Assembly (NCBI GenBank): GCA_964519305.1
Contig: CAZFHY010000006.1
Span: 64,001 to 128,000, forward strand
Direction of reading: 5' to 3'
Origin: Candidatus Undinarchaeota archaeon
GTDB taxonomy: Archaea > SpSt-1190 > JASMDC01
DNA: 64,000 bases
Shown: piece by piece, positions 14,898 through 38,102 of the stretch
Layout of the letters: each line of letters begins with the position of its first letter
Position numbering within the stretch: position 1 is the first letter of the stretch
Made by a program: the position numbers and the translations under genes
Notes under the pieces: generated by a model
What the model saw: only the letters and a program-made list of their open reading frames with translations
The model's database searches: none
Told to the model about the DNA's origin: nothing

Positions 14898-15542
14898 TCA
14901 TTCCTCCCCTGTCTTCTTACCTTTCCTTCTGACGAATATGTCCTCACCGATCCCTCTCTCCAGGGCGATGGTCGTCTCTCCCACCTGGATCACCAGGGAT
15001 GGCGATGTCCGGTGCACGTGCACCTCGAGCCCCGGTACGATACCGAAGGACATGAGCTTGTGGAGCCGGGGGTGGCGCTTGGTGTGGAGGTACGACACGA
15101 TCCCCTTCTCGCCGACCCCCAGATCGGTGAGGGGCACCACGATGCTCTTGGCATCGATGCGCCGTTCCTCGCAACACGGTCCCGGGGGGATGGGCGTGCC
15201 GTGAGGGCATACCTTCGGATGGCCCAGGAGCGTGCAGATGTTCTCCTCGACCCCGGGAGAGAGTATGTGCTCGAACCTGCACGCCTGGTCATGGATCTCT
15301 GAGTCGTTCATCTGTAGAACGTCGTGGAGCAGCCTCTCGGCGAGCCGGTGCCGGCGCACGATGGCCCGGCCGACATCCTCGCCCTTGCTCGTGAGGACCA
15401 CACGGTCGTTGACGACCTCGGTCAGCTCCCGCTCCATGAGAGCGCTCAGGTCCTCGTCCCTCACGTCCTTCATCTTGACCTGGGCTCCCTTGTCCTTCTT
15501 GATCCATAGATGCTCGAGCACCTCCTCCAGTTGTTCGATCAT
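14898..15542 (-). CDS. DtxR-family regulator with C-terminal FeoA domain
   Basis: RRHRLAERLL, ACRFEHILS, LLGHPKVCPHGTPIP, then FeoA-like KLMSFGIVPGLEVHV. Confidence 0.9.
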   Translation of the reverse strand: MIEQLEEVLEHLWIKKDKGAQVKMKDVRDEDLSALMERELTEVVNDRVVLTSKGEDVGRAIVRRHRLAERLLHDVLQMNDSEIHDQACRFEHILSPGVEENICTLLGHPKVCPHGTPIPPGPCCEERRIDAKSIVVPLTDLGVGEKGIVSYLHTKRHPRLHKLMSFGIVPGLEVHVHRTSPSLVIQVGETTIALERGIGEDIFVRRKGKKTGEE

Positions 15543-26934: not shown

Positions 26935-28632
26935 TCAGGCCTGCTCGACGAGCACATCGCCCAGGGCCATGAGGGGGACGCCCGTCTCCACGAACGTCTT
27001 CAGCGCGTCCTCGGGAGTGCACACAATGGGCTGGCCATGGACGTTGAAGGAAGTGTTGAGCACGATGCCGTCACCGGTCTCTTTCCGCACGCCCTCGATG
27101 ACACGTCGATAGGCAGGGTTCTCCTCGCCAAGGATCTGGGGGCGGGAGGAGCCGTCCACGTTGATGACGGCACGGAGCTGGTCTCTTAGACCGTCCTGGA
27201 TCAGATATCCCATGGTCATGAACCTGTCCGGTGCGTCCACGTCCTTGAAGAACCGCTTGCTGTCCTCTTCAAGTACCGAGGGGCAGAAGGGCTGGAACCA
27301 CACCCGCTTCTTCACCTTCATGTTCAGGTCGTGCTTGGCCGTGGGCGAGTCTGCACGGGCCAGGATGCTGCGGTTCCCCAGCGCCCGCGGACCCAGTTCC
27401 ATCCGGCCGTTGTACCAGAACACGATGTCGTTGGCGGCGATGCGCTCTGCGGCTGTGCCGGCAGCATCTTCGGACCGCTCCCACCTTACCTTCCCCTTGA
27501 ACGCCTTGAGAGCAGTGAGCACCTCGTCCTCGCCGTACTCAGGGCCGAGGAATATATGGGGGATGCGCTCCGGGTGGACCACGTCCACCTCCTTGGCCAC
27601 TTTGAGGGCGGCTCCGATGGCCAGGCCCCCGTCTCCCATGTGCGGGAACACGAACCATTCCTTGACATCAGGGAGCAGGCGGATGTGCATGTTCATCTTG
27701 ATGTTGGAAGCGATGCCTCCGTTCCATGCCACCGAGGACATCCCTGTCTCCTTCACGGCGTTGGCGAACAGCTGGCTCGTGAAGTGCTCGAACGCCCGCT
27801 GGGCCATGTGAGCGAACTGTTCGCGGGGATTGCGCCATAGCGTCCGCTGGAGCAGCTTGTATCGAGCGCCGGGGGAGAGCCGTGCCCGGACCCGCATACC
27901 GTCCACCTCGTAGAGGTCGAAGAAGGGGTTCTTCTCATCGGGCACCTCGTAGGAGAAGTCCGCGAGCGACATGACCTTCCCCTCGTCCTCGAGGACGCGC
28001 ATACCGATTAGGTGGGTGACCTCCTGGTAGAACAGACCCAGTGAGTCGCGGGTAGCCATGGTCTCCAGGTTCCTGACATCGCCGTCCTCAGCGATCCCCA
28101 CGGTCGTGGACACACCATCGCCCAGGGCGTCCATTGTGACCACCAGGCTCTTGCGGAATCCCGAACAGAGGGCCGCAGCGGCAGCATGGGCCTCGTGATG
28201 GTCGACGATGTGGAGGATGTAATCATGGTCGAACCCTGCCCGCGCCAATTGCGTGTGCAGAGCGCGTTTCGACAGAGCATGGAACAACCTGTTCGACCGG
28301 AGCTTTCCGGTAGAGTTCTGGATGAGCCGGTTGATCTCGACGTTCCATGGCGGGTCCACCTTGTGGCGACGGACCGGATAGTAGTCCTCCTTCACCTTGG
28401 GCCACACGCGGCCCAGGGTGACCGAGAAGTCGGATGTGCACCCTGCCACGACCTCGATGTCCGCCGGTTTGAGGTCGGCGGCCCCGAGACACCAGGACAG
28501 GGCCTTGTGGGGGAAGTGGACCTCGAGCTTACGACGTGTGAACCGCTCCTCGTTCGCAGCGGTGATCACTCGTCCGTCGCGGACCACGCAGGCGCCGGCG
28601 TCATGGCCGTCCCACACGCCCAGTATGTCCAT
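26935..28632 (-). CDS. Carbamoyltransferase, NodU/CmcH family
   Basis: GHDAGAC, EERFTRRK, HHEAHAAAA, EGKVMSLA, GRMELGPRALGNRSILA, QPFCPS, LNTSFNVHGQPIV. Confidence 0.95.
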   Translation of the reverse strand: MDILGVWDGHDAGACVVRDGRVITAANEERFTRRKLEVHFPHKALSWCLGAADLKPADIEVVAGCTSDFSVTLGRVWPKVKEDYYPVRRHKVDPPWNVEINRLIQNSTGKLRSNRLFHALSKRALHTQLARAGFDHDYILHIVDHHEAHAAAAALCSGFRKSLVVTMDALGDGVSTTVGIAEDGDVRNLETMATRDSLGLFYQEVTHLIGMRVLEDEGKVMSLADFSYEVPDEKNPFFDLYEVDGMRVRARLSPGARYKLLQRTLWRNPREQFAHMAQRAFEHFTSQLFANAVKETGMSSVAWNGGIASNIKMNMHIRLLPDVKEWFVFPHMGDGGLAIGAALKVAKEVDVVHPERIPHIFLGPEYGEDEVLTALKAFKGKVRWERSEDAAGTAAERIAANDIVFWYNGRMELGPRALGNRSILARADSPTAKHDLNMKVKKRVWFQPFCPSVLEEDSKRFFKDVDAPDRFMTMGYLIQDGLRDQLRAVINVDGSSRPQILGEENPAYRRVIEGVRKETGDGIVLNTSFNVHGQPIVCTPEDALKTFVETGVPLMALGDVLVEQA

Positions 28633-28695
28633 GGCGCGAGTGTTCAGGGCAAGTTTATATAACCATTATCGTGGGAGCCTCTTCAGGTGTGATGA

Positions 28696-29745
28696 CTGAA
28701 CAGAAAGCTCGTGTTCACTGTCGTACTGGGACTGGCCGTTGCCATAGCCATGTTCTGGACTGAGGACCCGACGGAACTGTCGCGTGTGTGGTCGACGGCC
28801 CGTAACGACTACCTGCTGGCCGGCGTGCTCCTCGTCATCATCACCCTCTTCATCAACACGGTCCGCTGGTATACGCTACTCCATCAGCTCGGCTATGATG
28901 CAGGGTTCATCGACGTGTTCTGTCAAGTGAGCGGCCCCTTCGTGGTCTCCTCCCTCACTCCCGGCCGTGCCGGCGAGGTGTTCAAGCTCTATGCCGCAAA
29001 GCGCATCAGCTGCATCGATGTATCCCACTCCAGTGCTGCGCTCCTTATCGAGCGCGCGTGCGATCTGTCCGTGATGACCTCCTTCATCCTCTTGGGGCTT
29101 GTGACCGGCCTCGAACCGCAGTTGGGCGCCTATGCCTCCGCTGCGTACGCCACAGTGGCGTTCACCATGACGGTCATCGCGGTGATAGTGCTCTCGGTGC
29201 GCCACCCGGGCGTGCTGGCGATGGTGGTCCGTGTGCTCGAACTGGGGGGCCGTGTCGGACTGCCCGGGTGCGGACGTGGCGCCAAGAAGATCGATGAGTG
29301 CGCTCCCGCCTTCCACTCGGTCGCAGGACGGATCAACCTGCCTCTTATACTCGGCATCACGGCGTGCGTGTGGGTGCTCGACGTTGCGCGTATGTGGGTG
29401 CTGTTCAAGGCACTGGGCGTCAACGTTCCGCTGGTGCCCATAGGGTTCGTGTACTGTCTTTCCCTCCTGTTGGGCATAGTGTCCTATGTCCCTGGTGGAC
29501 TGGGGGTCACCGAGGGTTCAATGGTCGTGCTGTTCGGGCTGTTCGCCGTACCCGGGACCCAGGCAAAGATCGCCGTTCTCATCGAGAGGGTGTTCTCGTT
29601 CTGGCTGGCCCTCTTCATCGGGAGCATGGCCCTCTCCTACAAGGCCGACGTGCTGCTGTTCGACCTGTCCTCGGGAGATATGCCGGACCTGACCGACGCG
29701 GAAGCCGCCACATGCCCCGCGGACGAGGACGATGAAACTAAGTAA
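28696..29745 (+). CDS. Lysylphosphatidylglycerol-synthase-TM / AglD2-like flippase-family protein
   Basis: TPGRAGEVFK, IERACDL, PGGLGVTEG motifs; homology to the paralog begins at CTG 28696 (next canonical start GTG 28711). Confidence 0.85.
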   Translation: MNRKLVFTVVLGLAVAIAMFWTEDPTELSRVWSTARNDYLLAGVLLVIITLFINTVRWYTLLHQLGYDAGFIDVFCQVSGPFVVSSLTPGRAGEVFKLYAAKRISCIDVSHSSAALLIERACDLSVMTSFILLGLVTGLEPQLGAYASAAYATVAFTMTVIAVIVLSVRHPGVLAMVVRVLELGGRVGLPGCGRGAKKIDECAPAFHSVAGRINLPLILGITACVWVLDVARMWVLFKALGVNVPLVPIGFVYCLSLLLGIVSYVPGGLGVTEGSMVVLFGLFAVPGTQAKIAVLIERVFSFWLALFIGSMALSYKADVLLFDLSSGDMPDLTDAEAATCPADEDDETK

Positions 29746-29779
29746 CTTCTTATAGGAGCGTCGTCTGTCATTCGGACAG

Positions 29780-30832
29780 GTGGACCGCCTGAACAAAAAG
29801 CTCCTGCTCACCAGTGCCTTGGGCGCCGCCGTCCTCGCCGTCATGTTATGGTCGGTCGGCCCCGAACGCTTGACGGAGCTCGTGTCCGGGGCGCGACCGG
29901 GCTATATAGTCGCCGCAGCGCTCGCTATAGTGGTCCTCAACGTGATCGCCACGTTCCGCTGGCACCTGCTCATGTCGTCGCTCGGGTACGTGCTGACCCT
30001 CTGGGACACGTATTTCCAGATTAGTGGTGCTTTCCTTCTCTCGACTCTCACCCCGGGCCGTGCCGGCGAAGTGTTCCGGTTATACCTCTCCAAGCGTATC
30101 AGCGATATCGACGCCTCCCACTCCGGCGCTGCGCTCCTCATCGAGCGCGCATGTGACCTTTCGGTGATGGCCGCTCTCATTCTTCTGGGGCTGGTGACCG
30201 GTATGGGGGCGCAGTTGGGCGCCTTCGGGGACGCTGCCCGGGTCACCGTGGGTGTGACCTTCCTAATCGTCGCCATGCTCGTGCTCTCGGTGCGCCACCG
30301 GTGGGCGATGGGCCTGGTGGTCCGGATCCTCTCTTTTGGAGGGCGACGAGGGCTCCCCGGGTGCGCGCGCGGTGCGCAGAAGATCGAGGAGAGCATCCCC
30401 GCGTTCCTATCGGTTGCACGTCGGGTGAGCGTGCCCGCTGTGTTCGGGATGACCTTGCTGATCTGGGCGTCCCAGGTCGCAAGGATGTGGTTCGTATGTG
30501 TCGCAGTAGGAGCCGAAGTGTCACCGATGGTCGTGGGCCTGGCCTACTGTCTCGGTATCCTTCTGGGTGTCGTGTCCTACATTCCTGGTGGGCTCGTGGT
30601 CACCGAGGGCACCATGGTCGGACTGCTCGTCGTGCACGGTGTGCCGACGGACATAGCGACGGTGGCCGTGGTGATCGACCGGCTGTTCGCCTACTGGGCC
30701 GCAGTAGTGGTCGGTGTGATGTCCCTTTCCTACAAGGCGGACGTGCTGTTGTTCGACTTCTCATCCGGCGAGATGCCGGACATGGTCGACGAGGAGACGG
30801 CGACCTGTCCCCCGGACGATGATGAAGAGTAG
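29780..30832 (+). CDS. Flippase-family protein (tandem paralog)
   Basis: TPGRAGEVFR, IERACDL, PGGLVVTEG; same acidic C-terminal tail as the upstream copy. Confidence 0.85.
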   Translation: MDRLNKKLLLTSALGAAVLAVMLWSVGPERLTELVSGARPGYIVAAALAIVVLNVIATFRWHLLMSSLGYVLTLWDTYFQISGAFLLSTLTPGRAGEVFRLYLSKRISDIDASHSGAALLIERACDLSVMAALILLGLVTGMGAQLGAFGDAARVTVGVTFLIVAMLVLSVRHRWAMGLVVRILSFGGRRGLPGCARGAQKIEESIPAFLSVARRVSVPAVFGMTLLIWASQVARMWFVCVAVGAEVSPMVVGLAYCLGILLGVVSYIPGGLVVTEGTMVGLLVVHGVPTDIATVAVVIDRLFAYWAAVVVGVMSLSYKADVLLFDFSSGEMPDMVDEETATCPPDDDEE

Positions 30833-30850
30833 TGGGACGTGTTCTGACAC

Positions 30851-30955
30851 GTGATAAGTACTGTATAGTTATGATGCAGTGTCAACTTCAGTCATAGTCC
30901 ACTACATCTCTCAGTGATGGTTGGACGCTCCCGGTTTAGAATACTTGCGCGTAAC
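30851..30955 (+). repeat. Left arm of long imperfect inverted repeat (partner 33484-33591)
   Basis: TGCAGTGTCAACTTCA (30875-30890), AGTCCAC, CAGTGATGGTT and CTTGCGCGTAAC all recur in order as reverse complements at 33484-33563. Confidence 0.85.
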
Positions 30956-31276
30956 TGTTTCGCAAAGGTACCGGGACACAGAGAATTACTGAATTTTTGT
31001 TCAGTAACATGTGGATACCCTCTGTCGCCCTCATGGAAGCGAAAGGGCACAAGCTTCCCTTCAACAGTCAGCTAGCCAGAAGTCACCACATAGTACGACC
31101 GTTCCAAAAAAGTACAGTAGACGCTGTATCTTCCTGCCATCACGCGAACATTGCGCGGACGTATCCCTGCCCAATCCTCCCACCTCGATATTGTAGGTGA
31201 CGTGCCAGCAATGTCGCGTCTTGGGGGGCCCGGCCCGGTATCGAAAAGAATATATTATATTCACCCGTTAAGTCCC

Positions 31277-33031
31277 ATGGAAGGTGATCCGGTGGCAAGT
31301 AGAATCCTAACACTTTCATCTAGGAGTAACTCCGCTGGCCAGGCGGCCATGGAGTTCCTGATGAGCTACGGCTGGATGCTGGTGATCATCGTCATCGGCG
31401 GTGCCGCGATGTACTCCATGGGCATCCTCAACCCGGGCACCTACCAGAAGAAGGGCTGCGTCGGGTTCGAGAAGATCCATTACCGCGACCACCTGTTCCG
31501 CGGTACGGGCGAGGTCGGGCTGTGGACGGTGTGGTCGTCAGAGACCGAGCGCGAAAGCCAGTTCCAACTGCGTATGCAGAACGGGGCCGGGATCACCCTC
31601 CGCATCCGGGGCATCGACGTGGAGTATCCCGAGGGCGTGCACGTGACGTGGTCCGAGCGCGGCTACGACTGCGACTACTACAACACCGCTGACGACACCG
31701 ACTCGGGCTGCCAGGAGCAGAACGTGTCCGAGGGGGATCTCGCCACCCTCTCCATCGAGGACGTGGGGCGGGGGACTCTGGACCTGCGACACGGCGCCGT
31801 GTACCGCAGCAAGGTCAAGGTGACGTTCGACGCGTTCAACGCGCTGGAAGATCACTCTGAGGTGGCCATCTGCTGTGGCAAGATCGAGGGCGGCTCGACC
31901 GCGTCCACATCGGGCGGCGGGAGCGGTTCGGGGTCCGGAACCGGTAGCGGTACGGGCTCCGGTACAGGTACTGGCAGCGGTACGGGATCCGGGACCGGGA
32001 GCGGCACCGGGGCGTCCTGGGGCCCCTGCATGGCCACGTGGGAGAAGGACGACGGATCGGACTACGAGATCATGTATGCCTCGTGGAACGGCGCGTGGAG
32101 CACCGCCGCCAAGGTGACCGACAACGCAATCTATGATAGCGCTCCTTCAATATCCTGCACCTCGTCGTCGTACTGCATGGCCGTCTGGTTCGCGTACGAC
32201 GGATCGGACTACGAAATCATGTACGCTACGTGGAACGGCGCCGCGTGGAGCGCCGCCGCCGCGGTGACCGACAACGCGGTCTCCGATACCAATCCCATCG
32301 TGTCATGCCCGACCACGTCCTTCTGCATGGCCACGTGGAACGGGCATGACGGGGACAGCGAGATCATGTACGCTACGTGGAACGGCGCCGCGTGGAGCGC
32401 CGCTGCCAAGGTGACCGACAACGCACTCTCCGAGTCCATGTCCTCCGTGTCCTGCGCCACATCGTCGTCCTGTATGACCGCGTGGCGCGTCCTAGATGGG
32501 AATTACGAGATCAGGTCCGCCGCATGGAACGGTGCTTCTTTGAGCGATGCCGAGGTGACCGACTTCGCGTACAACGACATCCAGCCCTCCGTCTCCTGCC
32601 CCTCGGCGAGCTCCTGCATGGTCACGTGGAGCAGGCACCAGGGGTCCAGCGGCGGGGACTACGAGATCATGTCCGCTACGTGGAACGGCGCCGTATGGAG
32701 CGCTGCCGCCCTGGTGTGCGACAACTCGGACCAAGACTACGAGCCCACCGTGTCCTGCCCGACCACGTCCTTCTGCATGGCCACTTGGCACGCGTCCGGC
32801 GTCGGGATCAAGTACGCCTCTTGGAACGGCGCCTCGTGGGGCGCGGAGGCGACGGTTGTCGGATCGGGGATCAATCCCCAGGTATCATGCACGACATCGA
32901 GCTCGTGCATGGTGGTGTACTCCGTGAACGATATCAAGAGCGCTACATGGAACGGGAGCTCATGGAGCGACGCGGGGACGGTGGACACCGCCGCAGGCAC
33001 GAACTATCCGTACGTCTCGTGCGTGGGGTGA
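31277..33031 (+). CDS. Type IV pilin-like (class III signal peptide) adhesin with GS/GT linker and Cys-containing beta-repeat domain
   Basis: SAG|QAAMEFLMSYGWMLVIIVIGG class III signal; (GSGT)n linker; ~7 repeats of DYEIMYATWNGAAWSAAA.VTDN....P.VSC.T.S.CM..W. Confidence 0.85.
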   Translation: MEGDPVASRILTLSSRSNSAGQAAMEFLMSYGWMLVIIVIGGAAMYSMGILNPGTYQKKGCVGFEKIHYRDHLFRGTGEVGLWTVWSSETERESQFQLRMQNGAGITLRIRGIDVEYPEGVHVTWSERGYDCDYYNTADDTDSGCQEQNVSEGDLATLSIEDVGRGTLDLRHGAVYRSKVKVTFDAFNALEDHSEVAICCGKIEGGSTASTSGGGSGSGSGTGSGTGSGTGTGSGTGSGTGSGTGASWGPCMATWEKDDGSDYEIMYASWNGAWSTAAKVTDNAIYDSAPSISCTSSSYCMAVWFAYDGSDYEIMYATWNGAAWSAAAAVTDNAVSDTNPIVSCPTTSFCMATWNGHDGDSEIMYATWNGAAWSAAAKVTDNALSESMSSVSCATSSSCMTAWRVLDGNYEIRSAAWNGASLSDAEVTDFAYNDIQPSVSCPSASSCMVTWSRHQGSSGGDYEIMSATWNGAVWSAAALVCDNSDQDYEPTVSCPTTSFCMATWHASGVGIKYASWNGASWGAEATVVGSGINPQVSCTTSSSCMVVYSVNDIKSATWNGSSWSDAGTVDTAAGTNYPYVSCVG

Positions 33032-33402
33032 GCCGCGGCGGGGGCACCGTGGACGGGAGCGGGAACGTGTACTTGGTGGATACCGAGAACCACCGCATCC
33101 AGAAGTTTACCTCGACAGGGACCTTCATCACAGAGTGGGGAGGCGGGGGCACGGGCGACGGGCAGTTCTCCACCCCACAGGGAATTGATATCGACACCTC
33201 CGGAAGGGTGTATGTCGCCGACGCGGGCAACAACCGCATTCAGGTGTTCGACACGGACGGAACCTTCATCACGAAGTGGGGGAGTTGGGGTACGGGCGAC
33301 GGGGAGTTAATCACCCCGAGCAATATGATCACGGTCGGGAGCGATACCATCTACGTCGTGGAATCGGGGAACAACCGGGTGCAGAAGTTCACCATATCGT
33401 AG
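33028..33402 (+). CDS. Orphan NHL-repeat module (partial beta-propeller)
   Basis: GNVYLVDTENHRIQKF, GDGQFSTPQGIDID, VYVADAGNNRIQVF; begins mid-blade at a GTG overlapping the pilin stop (GTGA); no signal peptide. Confidence 0.75.
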   Translation: MSRGGGTVDGSGNVYLVDTENHRIQKFTSTGTFITEWGGGGTGDGQFSTPQGIDIDTSGRVYVADAGNNRIQVFDTDGTFITKWGSWGTGDGELITPSNMITVGSDTIYVVESGNNRVQKFTIS

Positions 33403-33483
33403 CGGACCGTTGTAAGTGGTGCCCCTGTCGCGTCCAGGGGGGCGGACCTACCTGACCGCTGGACGTGAGGTCATCCCGCGACC

Positions 33484-33591
33484 GTTACACGCAAGTGTTT
33501 TAATCTGGAGTACCTAACCATCACTGTGAGGATGGGTGGACTCTTGTTGAAGTTGACACTGCACAAAAGTTTCTGAGTACCCTTGCATCAC
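33484..33591 (-). repeat. Right arm of long imperfect inverted repeat (partner 30851-30955)
   Basis: TGAAGTTGACACTGCA at 33548-33563 is the exact reverse complement of 30875-30890; AACCATCACTG and GTTACACGCAAG also match. Confidence 0.85.
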
Positions 33592-33605
33592 TTCCTACCA
33601 GAGTC

Positions 33606-34331
33606 CTAGAACTCAACCCTTTCTCCCGGTCGCAGGGTACGCACCTTGATGCCTGGCTCCCGTTCACGCGCCAACCTCTCCAGCTCCTCGGGGCGTCCCG
33701 AATGGAAGGATAAGGGCGGTAGGCTCATCCAGGCACCACCCTCGTGGATGGGGATGACTTTGCTAGCGCCAAGTTCCACTGCGGCCTGGAGGGCCTGGGC
33801 AGGGGTCATGACGATGCGGCGGCCAAGCACCCGGGAGCCGCCTATAGGGAGCATGGCCACGTCGATGGTGAAGCGCCGGCCAATATCGGTGAACCCGTGA
33901 TGGTACTTCGTATCGCCGCCGAAGAACAGGCTCGTGGACCCGTCCTGGAGGACGAAGTTGATCTCGCCGTCCGGATGGTCCGCCTCGGTAGCGGTGATGG
34001 TGACCCCTCCCTGCTCCTGGACGTCGCCCGGGACCATGTCCACGACCTCCTTCGCTCCCAGGTCGCGAGCGAAACGCGCCGTCCCCTCAGGCCCGAGGAT
34101 GGTTGTCTTGGCCAGGTCCATACGGCTTAAAGAGCGCCGGTCGAAGTGGTCCGGGTGGAGATGTGAGGCGACAATCAGGTCGATGGGTGGCAGGTCCTTG
34201 AGCTCGATACCGGGGCGCTGGTAGCAGGGCAGTCCCCGTAACTGCATGCAGAACCAGGGGTCGGTGAGGACCGTGAGCCCCTCGAACCGCAGCAGGAGCG
34301 TAGAGGTCCGGACGAATGTGACGTCCACCAC
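33606..34331 (-). CDS. MBL-fold metallo-hydrolase
   Basis: VLTDPWF, SHLHPDHFD, FFGGDT, MLPIGG, VIPIH. Confidence 0.9.
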   Translation of the reverse strand: MVDVTFVRTSTLLLRFEGLTVLTDPWFCMQLRGLPCYQRPGIELKDLPPIDLIVASHLHPDHFDRRSLSRMDLAKTTILGPEGTARFARDLGAKEVVDMVPGDVQEQGGVTITATEADHPDGEINFVLQDGSTSLFFGGDTKYHHGFTDIGRRFTIDVAMLPIGGSRVLGRRIVMTPAQALQAAVELGASKVIPIHEGGAWMSLPPLSFHSGRPEELERLAREREPGIKVRTLRPGERVEF

Positions 34332-34356
34332 GCTCCCGGGATAGGGGGCAAACGTT

Positions 34357-34875
34357 TTATGTCCCATCCTCCGGCGGAGCACGCAGTGCTGCCCAGGGCC
34401 TTACGCCTCTTGAGACCATCACTGCGAATCCGCCCCATCCGACCGCTAGCAGCAGAAGCTGTGCGGCGATGAATACCTCCCGGGGGAACAGCCCCCACGT
34501 CGACACCAGACACACGGTCTCGGAGAACGGGCGCAGGCACCGAGCATTACCTTCCCAGAGGATAGGGAGGCCTATGCCCAGATCGATAGCGGCGTGGAGC
34601 AGAACACCAGCTAGGCACACGGGCAGGACACGACGGAACCGTTGCGGGTCCCTGGCGAGCATCCACGCGACCACGGCCGCTAGCAATGGCAGAACGATAA
34701 GGTTGCCCATCACGGTAGCATGGGTGCGTGCCAGCACGCTCCACCCGAACACCACCATCACCAGGTCTATGTCCGGTACCACGCTGGCCACGAGGAACGC
34801 GCGGGTCCGCTCCCGGTCCAGTCCCTGTCTAGAGGCGATAAGGAGCGCGAGCATGTAATGTGTGAGCGGGTCCAT
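34357..34875 (-). CDS. Membrane metal-dependent hydrolase (YdjM-like)
   Basis: MDPLTH, VPDID, LLHAAIDL and TM helices. Confidence 0.8.
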   Translation of the reverse strand: MDPLTHYMLALLIASRQGLDRERTRAFLVASVVPDIDLVMVVFGWSVLARTHATVMGNLIVLPLLAAVVAWMLARDPQRFRRVLPVCLAGVLLHAAIDLGIGLPILWEGNARCLRPFSETVCLVSTWGLFPREVFIAAQLLLLAVGWGGFAVMVSRGVRPWAALRAPPEDGT

Positions 34876-34879
34876 GGGT

Positions 34880-36295
34880 TCACCCGCGGCCTAGGAGCCG
34901 GCGGGCGGCCTTGGCACCTGCCCAAGCCATAGTGCGGACCTGAGCGTCACCCTTCAGAGCGGCGAGCGTCTGCCGTCCCACGTACCCGGGGCGCAGGTAG
35001 AAGGCCCGGTTGATGCGCTGCCAGTACTCCCGGAGAAGCTCGGGTGGTGCGGTGGGATTCTCCATCACGGTCTCGTTGAGGAACACGTACCGCTCCCAGT
35101 CGTCCGTCTGCAGGAGATCGTTCTTCTCGGCCCATGCGTGGAGCCCGGTGCCCGGGTACGGTGTGGCGAAGGACACCTGAAGGTAGTCGCAGTCGACCTC
35201 CTGGACGAGCTGGAGCGTCTCCTCCAGCGTCTCCTGGGTCTCCCCCGGCAGTCCCAGCATAAGGAATCCCATGGTCTTGATGCCCTCGTCGTGCGCCAAC
35301 GTGAAGGCGTTCTTGATCTGCTCCACGGTGATGCCCTTGCGCATGGCGTTGAGGAGTTTCTGGGAGCCGGACTCTATACCGAACTCGATGAGGTCGCACC
35401 CCGCTTCGTGCATGGCCGCCAGCACGTCCTTGTCCACGGTGTCGGCCCGCGTGAGGGCCTTCCACCGCAGGTCGTCGGGCAGACCCCGTTCTACGAGCTC
35501 ATGGCACAGCTCGATCGACCATGAACGGTCCACGGCGAACGTGTCGTCCAGGAAAGAGATGAGCTTGACGCCGAACTCGCGCCTGTCCCGCTCTATCTCC
35601 TCGGCGACGTTCCGCGGGGAACGTGTGCGCAGCGTCCCACCGAACACCCAGGGGCATGAGCAGTAGATGCACCGGCCCGGGCAGCCACGGACAGCAATTA
35701 CCGTGGAGAAATGATCAGATTCAGGCGCCCTGTACCGTTCCATGGGCAGGAGATGGAGGGCTGGGAATGGCAGGTCGTCCAGTGGGTCCACCAGCGGTCG
35801 TTGTGGCCCGTGCACTATCCTCTTGCCTTTACGGAGCGACACACCGGCCACCCGGGATAGCTTGCTAGGACCTTCCGGGAGCGAGTCCACCAGCTCGGGG
35901 AGGGTGCGCTCCCCCTCACCACGCACCAGCATATCGATAGATGGGAGCCGTGTGAGGGTCTGGTCCGGGACCATGCTGGCATGGACACCGCCCAGAACTG
36001 TGGTCGTTTCAGGTCGCAGGGTCTTGACACCATGGGCGATGCGGCCGCACAGGTCCGCAGTGGGAGTTGTGGCGGTGAGCCCTACAACGTCGGGTTCGGC
36101 GTCCAGCACCCGACGGACCGCCTCTTCCTCGGAGAGCTGGAGCGCATTGGCGTCAAGTATGTCCACCGGTACGCCGGCCACTTCAAGGCACGCGGCGAGG
36201 TAGGCCAGCCCGAGCGGGGGGCCTACTGATATCTGGGCGATGGCCTCGGTCCGTGACTGGTACGGCGGGTTCACCAGCAGCACGGATGGTGCCAT
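34880..36295 (-). CDS. B12-binding radical SAM protein
   Basis: VLLVNPP, PPLGLAYLAA, GGVHAS, RGEGE, RGCPGRCIYC, GIESGS, GLPGET. Confidence 0.93.
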   Translation of the reverse strand: MAPSVLLVNPPYQSRTEAIAQISVGPPLGLAYLAACLEVAGVPVDILDANALQLSEEEAVRRVLDAEPDVVGLTATTPTADLCGRIAHGVKTLRPETTTVLGGVHASMVPDQTLTRLPSIDMLVRGEGERTLPELVDSLPEGPSKLSRVAGVSLRKGKRIVHGPQRPLVDPLDDLPFPALHLLPMERYRAPESDHFSTVIAVRGCPGRCIYCSCPWVFGGTLRTRSPRNVAEEIERDRREFGVKLISFLDDTFAVDRSWSIELCHELVERGLPDDLRWKALTRADTVDKDVLAAMHEAGCDLIEFGIESGSQKLLNAMRKGITVEQIKNAFTLAHDEGIKTMGFLMLGLPGETQETLEETLQLVQEVDCDYLQVSFATPYPGTGLHAWAEKNDLLQTDDWERYVFLNETVMENPTAPPELLREYWQRINRAFYLRPGYVGRQTLAALKGDAQVRTMAWAGAKAARRLLGRG

Positions 36296-36347
36296 GGTCG
36301 AAAAGGGGCCTGTTACCTTAATAAACGTTACACGGGTTCGTTCCATC

Positions 36348-38102
36348 ATGCTCGGACAGGCAGGGGGGCTTGTGGCAGGTTTCCTGACCTGGACCTATGC
36401 TCTTCTCGTACCGGGACTGCTGTGGGCGCTGGCCCTCTATCCTGGCCGGACGCTCATCTTCACGCTCGTGACAGGCCTGTCGATCGGTCTCTTCGTGATG
36501 CCCGTGGGCGCTTTCATGTTCGCTTGGCTGACCGGCACGGTCGTCTCTGTACCGCTGGTGCTCTCTCTCGCTACCCTGCTCTCTCCGCTGGCCCTTGTCG
36601 TACGATGGCCTCGAGCACCTTCCCGGGGCGATTCCGGGGACGGTGGGGCCGCAGCACTGATCCTGGCGCTCCTTCTCCTAATGGGTGCGCTCTACGAGGG
36701 GACCGCTCTTGGTTACTGGGACACCTACATCGTGGCCCCCGCTCTGTTCATCATCGATGAGCCCATTGCCTTCGTGGACATGAACGGCAACCTCCTGGTG
36801 AACGCCACCCTCACCGGAAAGCTGTTCGACAATCTCAGGGACGATACGACCTATGGCATCATCACAAAGGACCAGCGCCTGGGTGCGGGTGTGCTGGTCT
36901 CGGTCCATGCCCTCCTCCTGGGCGATGTGGGGTTCAGACTGGCCTTCGCCTGCTACCACGCGCTTGGTGCGGCCGCGATCTACCTGGCGGCCCGACTGCT
37001 CTTCAGTTCGTCATGGATGGGCATTGCCGCCGCCACGCTCCTTGGGTTCAACGGGTTCGTGCTCACAGCAGATACCCTCAATCCCAACGCCATCGCCATG
37101 TCCATGAGCGCTGTGATGACCATGTTGCTGCTCCACAGGCCGCGAGGGAGGCAGTGGGCGATCATCGGTCTGCTCCTGGGCACCCTTGGTGGGGTACGGA
37201 ACATCGCACTGCTCTTCGTCCCTGCGGTCATCTGGGCGACCCGGCCCTGGGACCGGCGACGGCTGGTGCTGCTCCTGGCAACGGCCTTCATCCTCAACGC
37301 ACCTTTCCTCGCGTGGAACAGGTTCGCCTTCGGTAGTATGTTCACCCACGCCGCTATGTACGCCGGGTATGAGGGGTGGCGGCCCCAGTTCGAGCACCAG
37401 TTACCGGTCCTGGGCACGTCGTTCAAGTTCAACGGGATGCTCAACTGGCCGTTCTACGATAACATAGTCCGGACACCTCACTTCCCATTTCCTGTGTTCC
37501 TCCTCCTGCCGCTTACTGTCATACGTTCCTTCGGCCTCGTCCTCTCTGCACTGGGGCTCGCTGGCATCGCTTTCCTATGGCGGGACGACCGCGCCGCCAT
37601 TATCCTACTTCTGCTCTGGGCCCTTCCATATTTCATGTTCTTCCTACCGCAGGAGAACTGGTCCGAGCTGAAGATGACCTTCCTCCTCCCTATCTATCCG
37701 GCAATGGTGCTATTGGTCCTGGCCGGTCTGCGCGGATCACGCCCGCTGCACATCGCCGTGTCGCTCCTCCTGCTCATCGTGTTCGTACAAGTGGCCGCGA
37801 CGAGCCAATACGAGCCCGATCCGCGGTGGCCCGAGCGCTTCCCACATTCCATGGCCAACGCGGGCAGGGAGCTGCCCGACGAACTGCGTGATACCCAGTT
37901 CTTCTTCCACCTGCCGGAGAACGATGACGAACTGATCCACCAGCGCCAGCGGTTCACGGCCGGGAACATCTTTCCATCGATCCGCACCGTTCCCCGTGAG
38001 CGTTTGAGCGGTCTGAGAGCGGCCCTCCGGACCGAGATGAGCGAGCGGAACAATGATGGTAGGCGGACCATGATCGCGGTATGGAACTACATCTACGGAT
38101 GA
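36348..38102 (+). CDS. GT-C fold (ArnT/PMT-like) multi-pass membrane glycosyltransferase
   Basis: More than 12 TM segments, WD acidic motif in the first large loop, PFLAWNRFAFGSMF motif typical of GT39/GT83-like proteins. Confidence 0.65.
   Translation: MLGQAGGLVAGFLTWTYALLVPGLLWALALYPGRTLIFTLVTGLSIGLFVMPVGAFMFAWLTGTVVSVPLVLSLATLLSPLALVVRWPRAPSRGDSGDGGAAALILALLLLMGALYEGTALGYWDTYIVAPALFIIDEPIAFVDMNGNLLVNATLTGKLFDNLRDDTTYGIITKDQRLGAGVLVSVHALLLGDVGFRLAFACYHALGAAAIYLAARLLFSSSWMGIAAATLLGFNGFVLTADTLNPNAIAMSMSAVMTMLLLHRPRGRQWAIIGLLLGTLGGVRNIALLFVPAVIWATRPWDRRRLVLLLATAFILNAPFLAWNRFAFGSMFTHAAMYAGYEGWRPQFEHQLPVLGTSFKFNGMLNWPFYDNIVRTPHFPFPVFLLLPLTVIRSFGLVLSALGLAGIAFLWRDDRAAIILLLLWALPYFMFFLPQENWSELKMTFLLPIYPAMVLLVLAGLRGSRPLHIAVSLLLLIVFVQVAATSQYEPDPRWPERFPHSMANAGRELPDELRDTQFFFHLPENDDELIHQRQRFTAGNIFPSIRTVPRERLSGLRAALRTEMSERNNDGRRTMIAVWNYIYG

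Follow-up and report, generated by a model that had tools for sequence, protein, structure and literature searches.

A pilin gene enclosed by outward-pointing copies of its family's promoter region in an Undinarchaeota genome: a probable cassette copy within a recombining adhesin family

Introduction

The stretch of DNA considered here, the window, is a 64,000-nucleotide (nt) piece of the genome of a Candidatus Undinarchaeota archaeon (G000:C6:64001-128000; genome size 3.63 Mb). Near its middle lies a 2.7-kb unit in which a pilin-like gene and a fragment of an NHL domain are enclosed by two inverted repeats, the arms. An earlier note on this DNA had read the unit as a non-autonomous mobile or invertible cassette, with small RNAs or dispersed repeats as alternatives. 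We find that the arms are orphan copies of the promoter and 5′ end of the pilin family, both pointing outward. The unit forms a discrete cassette within an adhesin family that undergoes recombination, and the evidence does not show it to be mobile or invertible. It is probably specific to this lineage, copied from a pilin cassette of an array situated 77 kb away and accompanied by an inverted duplicate of its own end. Positions without a contig name are those of the window.

Results

The arms are orphan pilin heads

The arms were located by a repeat finder at 30875-30936 and 33502-33563 (62 nt, 74% complementary), and the core of the inverted repeat, 30875-30957 against 33482-33563, has 61 of 81 positions identical. 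When the left arm was used as a BLAST query against the genome, the sole other match was the right arm (78% over 84 nt, E 1.3e-9), and the inverted repeat is far beyond chance. Pairwise alignment reproduced the identical blocks of 16, 7, 11 and 11/12 nt that the earlier note had described in the same order on both sides. The arm limits given there hold for the core and fail for the outer 24-28 nt (30851-30874 and 33564-33591), which are barely similar and have GTACT alone in common; this GTACT belongs to a palindrome that is also found at the empty site of the sister species (see below). Inward, the alignments extend the inverted repeat to ~31075 on the left and ~33400 on the right, where the copy has a gap of 26-31 nt. 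The outermost 16 nt of the two arms are identical. Selection on the identical blocks was considered and rejected: when mismatch positions are shuffled, the blocks are not significantly clumped (P 0.12 for a run of at least 16, P 0.08 for the three longest runs) and are therefore no evidence of selection. The parts of the two ends are as follows.

30875..30957, minus strand (outward): left arm, a pilin-family head with CGTT-type repeats, a weakened B recognition element (BRE)/TATA-like box TATTCTAAA, the GTG start position and ~10 degenerate codons resembling a signal peptide (TMTEVDTAS*) that end at the unit edge; model R1, E 2.3e-19
30962..31054, minus strand: full copy of a ~95-nt intergenic repeat with two hairpins; nhmmer E 6.4e-22, fold z -2.0
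31055..31075, minus strand: inner end of the extended inverted repeat, homologous by alignment to the first ~20 nt past the stop codon on the right side, TAG included
31076..31211, no strand: spacer, searched with tblastx and blastn-short
33403..33447, plus strand: 3′ untranslated stretch with a partial copy of the intergenic repeat (hairpin 1 only, 33416-33447); E 0.31 alone, clear in alignments
33482..33563, plus strand (outward): right arm, likewise a pilin-family head; its BRE/TATA box is near consensus, and the GTG start position is followed by what is putatively a degenerate signal-peptide remnant (TLVEVDTAQK); model R1, E 6.2e-18

In the outward direction, each arm can be aligned with the sequence upstream of four pilin paralogs and has in common with it CGTT-type direct repeats, a BRE/TATA-like box, a ~31-nt spacer and a GTG that is the start codon in the paralogs; the outward BRE/TATA-like motif recorded earlier is thus borne out. 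A hidden Markov model (HMM) of both arms had one further significant match in the genome (C6:17232-17297, E 4.7e-10), directly upstream of a pilin paralog with a full NHL domain. With a promoter HMM built from three sequences, eight matches fell below E 0.01, six of them upstream of pilin-family genes and two in the arms, and the other three of the 11 matches listed had an E of at least 0.56. The sequence-only model R1 (E ≤ 0.1) matched eight times in this genome, G000, and three times in G001, the single congener and sister species used for comparison. Nine of these 11 matches lie within ~200 nt upstream of pilin-family reading frames; the remaining two are the arms, the sole orphans.

From the GTG the arms read VDSC* and VDYD*, and no intact pilin reading frame follows. 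In the +1 frame, however, their last ~30 nt read TLVEVDTAQK and TMTEVDTAS*, to be set beside the paralog signal peptide VALVRLKTGRAQAA. This likeness suggests that the arm ends are a frameshifted signal-peptide remnant stopping just before the cleavage motif, a reading that extends over ~10 codons. Small peptides encoded in the arms were also considered and were rejected, the reading frames differing between the two arms. The junction between intergenic element and promoter is identical upstream of the propeller paralog and in the arms, so that an arm together with its inner extension corresponds to a cassette end joined to the head of the pilin gene that comes next. The 136-nt spacer 31076-31211 has no relative in the genome at the DNA level or in six-frame comparison, self matches being the only ones below E 0.1.

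The unit is absent at the same site in the sister species

G001 has orthologs of both flanking genes (88% and 84% identity), separated by ~100 nt, and the 2.7-kb unit is absent at exactly that site. Between these orthologs is a 22-nt palindrome, whose halves lie 12 nt outside each arm in G000.

30858..30864, no strand: left half of the presumed target palindrome, AAGTACT, intact at the congener's empty site; target DNA, outside the inserted unit
33578..33584: right half of the presumed target palindrome, GAGTACC

Two metagenome records (L035 and L036) have the same empty site with sequence like that of G001; they belong to the same species and add up with it to one independent lineage. The absence of a target-site duplication, stated earlier, was confirmed: the 12-mers beside the arms share 5 of 12 positions, and no direct repeat is present at the junctions. 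A search for an outgroup with synteny found none, the more distant homologs of the flank gene in metagenomes (44% or less) being without the neighbouring genes. Insertion in G000 is more likely than deletion in G001 because G001 lacks a close counterpart of the window pilin and of the two array pilins. What matches these pilins in G001 is either orthologous to other paralogs or more distantly related within the family.

The source array and exchange of modules in the pilin family

An HMM of the intergenic repeat matched on contig C6 only. Ten matches reached E ≤ 2e-5, nine of them in C6:7255-15630 and one in the left part of the unit. The array to which the nine belong (C6:7255-17300) lies ~77 kb upstream of the unit on the same contig and consists of cassettes of one or two genes, nearly all on one strand, each followed by the ~95-nt two-hairpin repeat. 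The cassettes include an NHL pilin, a propeller pilin, vapBC, two nucleotidyltransferase/HEPN-like pairs and an AAA_14/DUF4143 ATPase, and next to the array are a tRNA gene and the gene of a 433-aa tyrosine recombinase that has a zinc ribbon. The congener has an array laid out in the same way but made up of different cassettes (G001:C67; eight minus-strand repeat matches in 6 kb), and the integrase is conserved in both species. In the fold the repeat forms two separate hairpins, the second of which shows compensatory changes; between species, the repeat travels with the downstream gene and not with the upstream gene. An Rfam search of the array returned the tRNA and two sub-threshold matches overlapping it, and nothing else. 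Two different toxin-antitoxin operons of the array (C6:13747-14391 and 15038-15493) have an almost identical ~120-nt upstream segment, copies of which are also present in G001:C67, and because this segment is shared the longest open reading frames (ORFs) of both operons begin with the same eight residues.

Exchange of modules within the family is seen directly at a pilin locus outside the array. The gene at C10:58960-60366 is orthologous to G001:C24:18444-21503, with 87% nucleotide identity through flank and N-terminal domain (N-domain), but from the linker on the two differ, G000 having 703 nt where G001 has 2510 nt of Calx-beta sequence. The Calx-beta tip at G001:C24 resembles that of a G000 paralog, C14:62983. 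Of the earlier idea that the arms are sites for exchanging tip adhesins, the exchange of modules in the family stands and the role of the arms is not supported: the exchange observed uses the conserved N-domain/linker and the 3′ region.

The enclosed pilin gene and the NHL relic

The inner part of the unit contains four features.

31212..31229, plus strand: what is left of hairpin 1 of the intergenic repeat, immediately before the pilin's own putative promoter; from the repeat finder and comparison with the upstream region of the propeller paralog
31245..31262, plus strand: AT-rich TATA-like box ~30 nt upstream of the GTG start, differing from the family promoter
31292..33031, plus strand: pilin-like gene, 579 aa, GTG start, with a class-III-type signal peptide (…SAGQAAMEF…), a ~200-aa N-domain, a Gly/Ser/Thr linker (about 31900-32010) and seven ~49-aa Trp/Cys repeats
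33019..33402, plus strand: NHL fragment of three repeats in another frame, without a signal peptide; Pfam NHL E 4.1e-22

A class III signal peptide consists of a short charged leader, a G/A-Q cleavage motif and then ~20 hydrophobic residues. These features are present in the translation (…RSNSAGQAAMEFLMSYGWMLVIIVIGGAAMY), and the same motif recurs in the paralogs. Curated models for pilins or class III signals gave no Pfam match to the pilin-like protein even at E up to 10, and no NCBIfam match. The genome has four Peptidase_A24 matches (prepilin peptidase) and six T2SSE matches (pilus ATPase), all over the cut-off. The ~200-aa N-domain is common to 14 other loci of the genome, with 79-85% identity to the four closest. 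To judge from its sequence and position, the box at 31245-31262 is presumably the gene's own promoter.

The N-domain family (31292-31900) is very narrow, with nine proteins at E ≤ 0.001 among 5.8 billion within the length range searched, and none of the nine (P0001-P0009) has a Pfam match for that domain. A 20.7-kb contig of one relative holds four paralogs with different tips (propeller-like twice, NHL and PF04300). The linker DNA (31918-32010) matches repeats at the extreme ends of two contigs, C15:2-275 and C5:3-209; similar linker repeats probably break the assembly, and further members of the family may be unassembled.

The NHL fragment and ~40 nt past its stop are 77-80% identical (blastn) to the end of the NHL paralog C6:15643-17235, from which we conclude that the fragment is the stranded tail of a domain that was replaced by the repeat module. 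As the earlier note had it, the unit holds only the pilin gene and the NHL module and no recombinase or transposase, to judge by its ORFs and Pfam. A foreign origin by composition was considered and rejected, since the G+C content of the coding part, 0.59-0.69, resembles that of the flanks; a lower value, 0.47-0.52, is confined to the non-coding left part.

Flanking genes and genome context

The genes on either side have their 3′ ends toward the unit, and their convergent arrangement, claimed earlier, is plain from the ORF list and Pfam.

28711-29745: tandem paralog of the left flanking gene
29780..30832, plus strand: left flanking gene, LPG_synthase_TM family, 3′ end toward the unit; Pfam PF03706 E 9.5e-42, G001 ortholog 84%
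33606..34382, minus strand: right flanking gene, metallo-beta-lactamase-fold hydrolase, 3′ end toward the unit; Pfam PF12706 E 2.7e-24, G001 ortholog 88%

A tRNA scan found none near the unit. The tandem LPG_synthase_TM paralogs (28711-29745 and 29780-30832; G001:C31:11740-12783) are 54% identical across the species copies, and in G001 the ortholog of the upstream copy contains a single in-frame TGA. Both G000 and G001 are large, at 3.6-3.8 Mb; the 15 other genomes of the same class that were sampled measure 0.6-1.2 Mb.

Discussion

A history that would account for the layout

We have assembled these data in a proposed history of the unit. A cassette of the array would have been copied, along with the adjoining head of the pilin gene that follows it, into the loop of the intergenic palindrome. 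The last ~200 nt of the cassette would have been duplicated in inverted orientation at the other end and the centre of the palindrome largely lost, leaving the spacer 31076-31211; either a palindromic duplication with loss of most of one copy or the capture of two opposed fragments would give this layout. The adhesin tip would have been replaced, a propeller-like tip taking the place of an earlier NHL tip, with the last three NHL repeats left untranslated, and the enclosed pilin would be expressed from its own internal promoter. Judged by identities of 70-87%, all of these steps appear to be old events. We infer the direction of insertion and the origin of the inverted copy, and likewise that the arms have no dedicated recombination role. 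The event itself is of an ordinary kind, in an unusual family and organism.

Several observations weigh against this history. The insertion or deletion is not polarised, there being one sister lineage and no syntenic outgroup. The formation of the inverted copy is an inference for which we found no intermediate, and the 136-nt spacer is left unexplained. The signal-peptide reading of the arm ends concerns ~10 codons. The right-arm promoter is near consensus despite ~20-25% divergence, which could mean continued use, and inversion or excision at low frequency may be missed, as contigs hide rare variants. Finally, both arms end at the same base, at or no more than ~12 nt from the boundary of the indel, with their outermost 16 nt identical. 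A shared end base fits a transposon with terminal inverted repeats and is not predicted by random rearrangement, and this keeps a transposon-like origin alive.

Alternative explanations

Such a transposon would be a non-autonomous one, its cargo carried in the manner of a miniature inverted-repeat transposable element (MITE), with pilin heads as terminal repeats and a transposase encoded elsewhere that moved the unit into the palindrome. A discrete 2.7-kb block absent from the congener, an inverted repeat that reaches the block edges (within ~12 nt) with a perfect 16-nt terminal match, and an insertion point within a hairpin-forming palindrome are all what it would lead one to expect. We nevertheless regard it as unlikely, since the target-site duplication is missing and the pilin heads account for the arms base by base. 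The genome, which is rated 99.8% complete (contamination 4.3%), has just two copies of the ends, the terminal 16-mer being found in the two arms only, and the motif GTGGACT-N5-16-mer had 0 exact matches in two public collections, metagenome_contigs and genome_contigs, where exact matching misses diverged relatives. The left arm gave only 14-27-nt matches at chance level in 40 other or related genomes (best E 0.006). A transposase with matching ends was looked for without success. None of the ORFs in 28000-37000 encodes a recombinase, and of the four Phage_integrase (tyrosine recombinase) matches in the genome the nearest, C6:5699-7000, is ~88 kb from the unit. What survives of the mobile cassette first proposed is a discrete inserted or deleted block; its mobility is not supported, with no other copies and no recombinase nearby. 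Nor are the arms a MITE or insertion-sequence family, there being only two full copies of the arm and no exact match of the terminal motif in the two collections. An invertible switch for phase or antigenic variation, recombining at the arms, is hardly to be expected. Inverted repeats do bracket a pilin gene, as they do in known pilin inversion systems, and outward promoters exist. However, there is no recombinase in or next to the unit, the arms are only ~75% alike, and inversion would not change expression of the pilin because its promoter and gene are both inside. We checked the junctions in the Logan contigs of four runs, taken from eight DNA runs (two studies) that contain the stretch. 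In all four, contigs bridge both junctions (29800-31381; 32891 onward) without difference and in the reference orientation, which speaks against the invertible cassette suggested at the outset. None of the 11 joints listed runs across 30865/33577 or changes strand, although contigs drop rare variants, so that a low-frequency inversion or excision could escape this check; the remaining joints are internal to the pilin gene and are consistent with cross-matching between paralogs.

Two further explanations give the arms or the repeats a present function. The arms might be working outward promoters, co-regulated with the pilins, whose short or antisense RNAs overlap the 3′ ends of the convergent neighbours. 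Both arms keep the promoter layout of the family and its TATA-to-start spacing, the right-arm box is near consensus, and both arms lie ~45 nt from the neighbours' stop codons. Against this, the left-arm TATA box is weakened, the conservation is not significantly clumped, and the sister species lacks the arms. For the predicted outward RNAs, folding is no more stable than in shuffled sequences (z -1.4 and -1.1), and no Rfam family matches them; over 28000-37000 at E up to 1, Rfam gave one chance-level match outside the arms (cow-rumen-1, 19.7 versus 53.4 bits). We thus consider this explanation rather improbable, and the small RNA put forward earlier is not upheld. The right arm may fire as a promoter and send an antisense RNA into the neighbouring gene. 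The other explanation takes the unit to be an ectopic product of an integron-like cassette system, the ~95-nt repeats being recombination sites carried by the arms. Archaeal integrons are described in PMC9668308. The array does consist of cassettes in mostly one orientation that are separated by a repeat, it has a tRNA gene and an integrase next to it, its arrangement recurs in the congener with a different set of cassettes, and hairpin 2 shows compensatory changes. Yet the integrase scores 36.6 bits against a TIGR02249 cut-off of 265, its best model being XerA-like (95 bits, cut-off 220). By eye there are no R′/R″ core sites and no GTTRRRY core, and the repeat is two separate hairpins and not one long imperfect stem. 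It moves with the downstream gene between species, the edges of the unit lie beyond it, at the pilin heads, and plain homologous recombination between repeats would explain the array. This origin is accordingly improbable in our view. The same doubt attaches to a broader version, in which an archaeal platform for shuffling cassettes, served by the Xer-like zinc-ribbon integrase and without canonical IntI/attC, would use the ~95-nt repeats and the pilin heads as its junctions, with the unit as an ectopic insertion and the arms as substrates.

Significance

Taken as a cassette copied from the array, the unit gives a concrete picture of surface-adhesin variety in a little-studied marine archaeal lineage with an unusually large genome for its group. 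A conserved pilin stem carries interchangeable tips and is copied together with its promoter, leaving datable scars in the form of orphan promoters and a stranded NHL tail. Among the papers retrieved on Undinarchaeota pilins and on inverted repeats at archaeal pilins, titles and abstract openings mention no such unit. The case also cautions against taking every gene between long inverted repeats for a mobile or invertible element. If the arms or the array repeats were indeed recombination sites, the locus would point towards a new type of archaeal cassette platform.

Comparison with known systems

In the pilE/pilS system of Neisseria, a pilin family is diversified by recombination among paralogs. 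The family described here is similar in that its N-terminal part is conserved and its C-terminal part varies, and in its numerous paralogs, its mosaic genes and the fragments that remain of replaced segments. It differs in that the paralogs are complete genes with their own promoters, in an archaeon, and that whole C-terminal domains of different folds are exchanged (NHL, propeller-like, Calx-beta and others); the events are old, at 70-87% identity, and not programmed. In Moraxella, with Piv, and on plasmid R64, with Rci, short crossover sites and an adjacent recombinase bring about an inversion that alters the expressed protein. Inverted repeats around a pilin coding sequence are common to those systems and to the unit, but here there is no recombinase, the arms are promoter copies of 80-200 nt, and inversion is neutral for the pilin.

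With MITEs the unit shares a discrete block, inverted ends that reach its boundaries and absence from the sister genome; unlike MITEs, it has no target duplication and no other copies, and its ends derive from a host promoter. The source array, though not the unit, recalls sedentary integrons and clusters of attC sites lacking integrases (CALINs), for which archaeal cases are given in PMC9668308: it has cassettes mostly in one orientation, structured repeats of ~95 nt, toxin-antitoxin pairs and a tyrosine recombinase. In contrast to them, the array integrase fails the IntI model, the repeats do not resemble attC sites, the cassettes have their own promoters, and the unit is not bounded by repeats. 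Palindromic segmental duplications with asymmetric deletion offer a further likeness, in the two outward copies of one end, the unexplained centre and the pre-existing palindrome, the mechanism being deduced from the layout alone; they differ from the present case in that no intermediate or second example was seen here.

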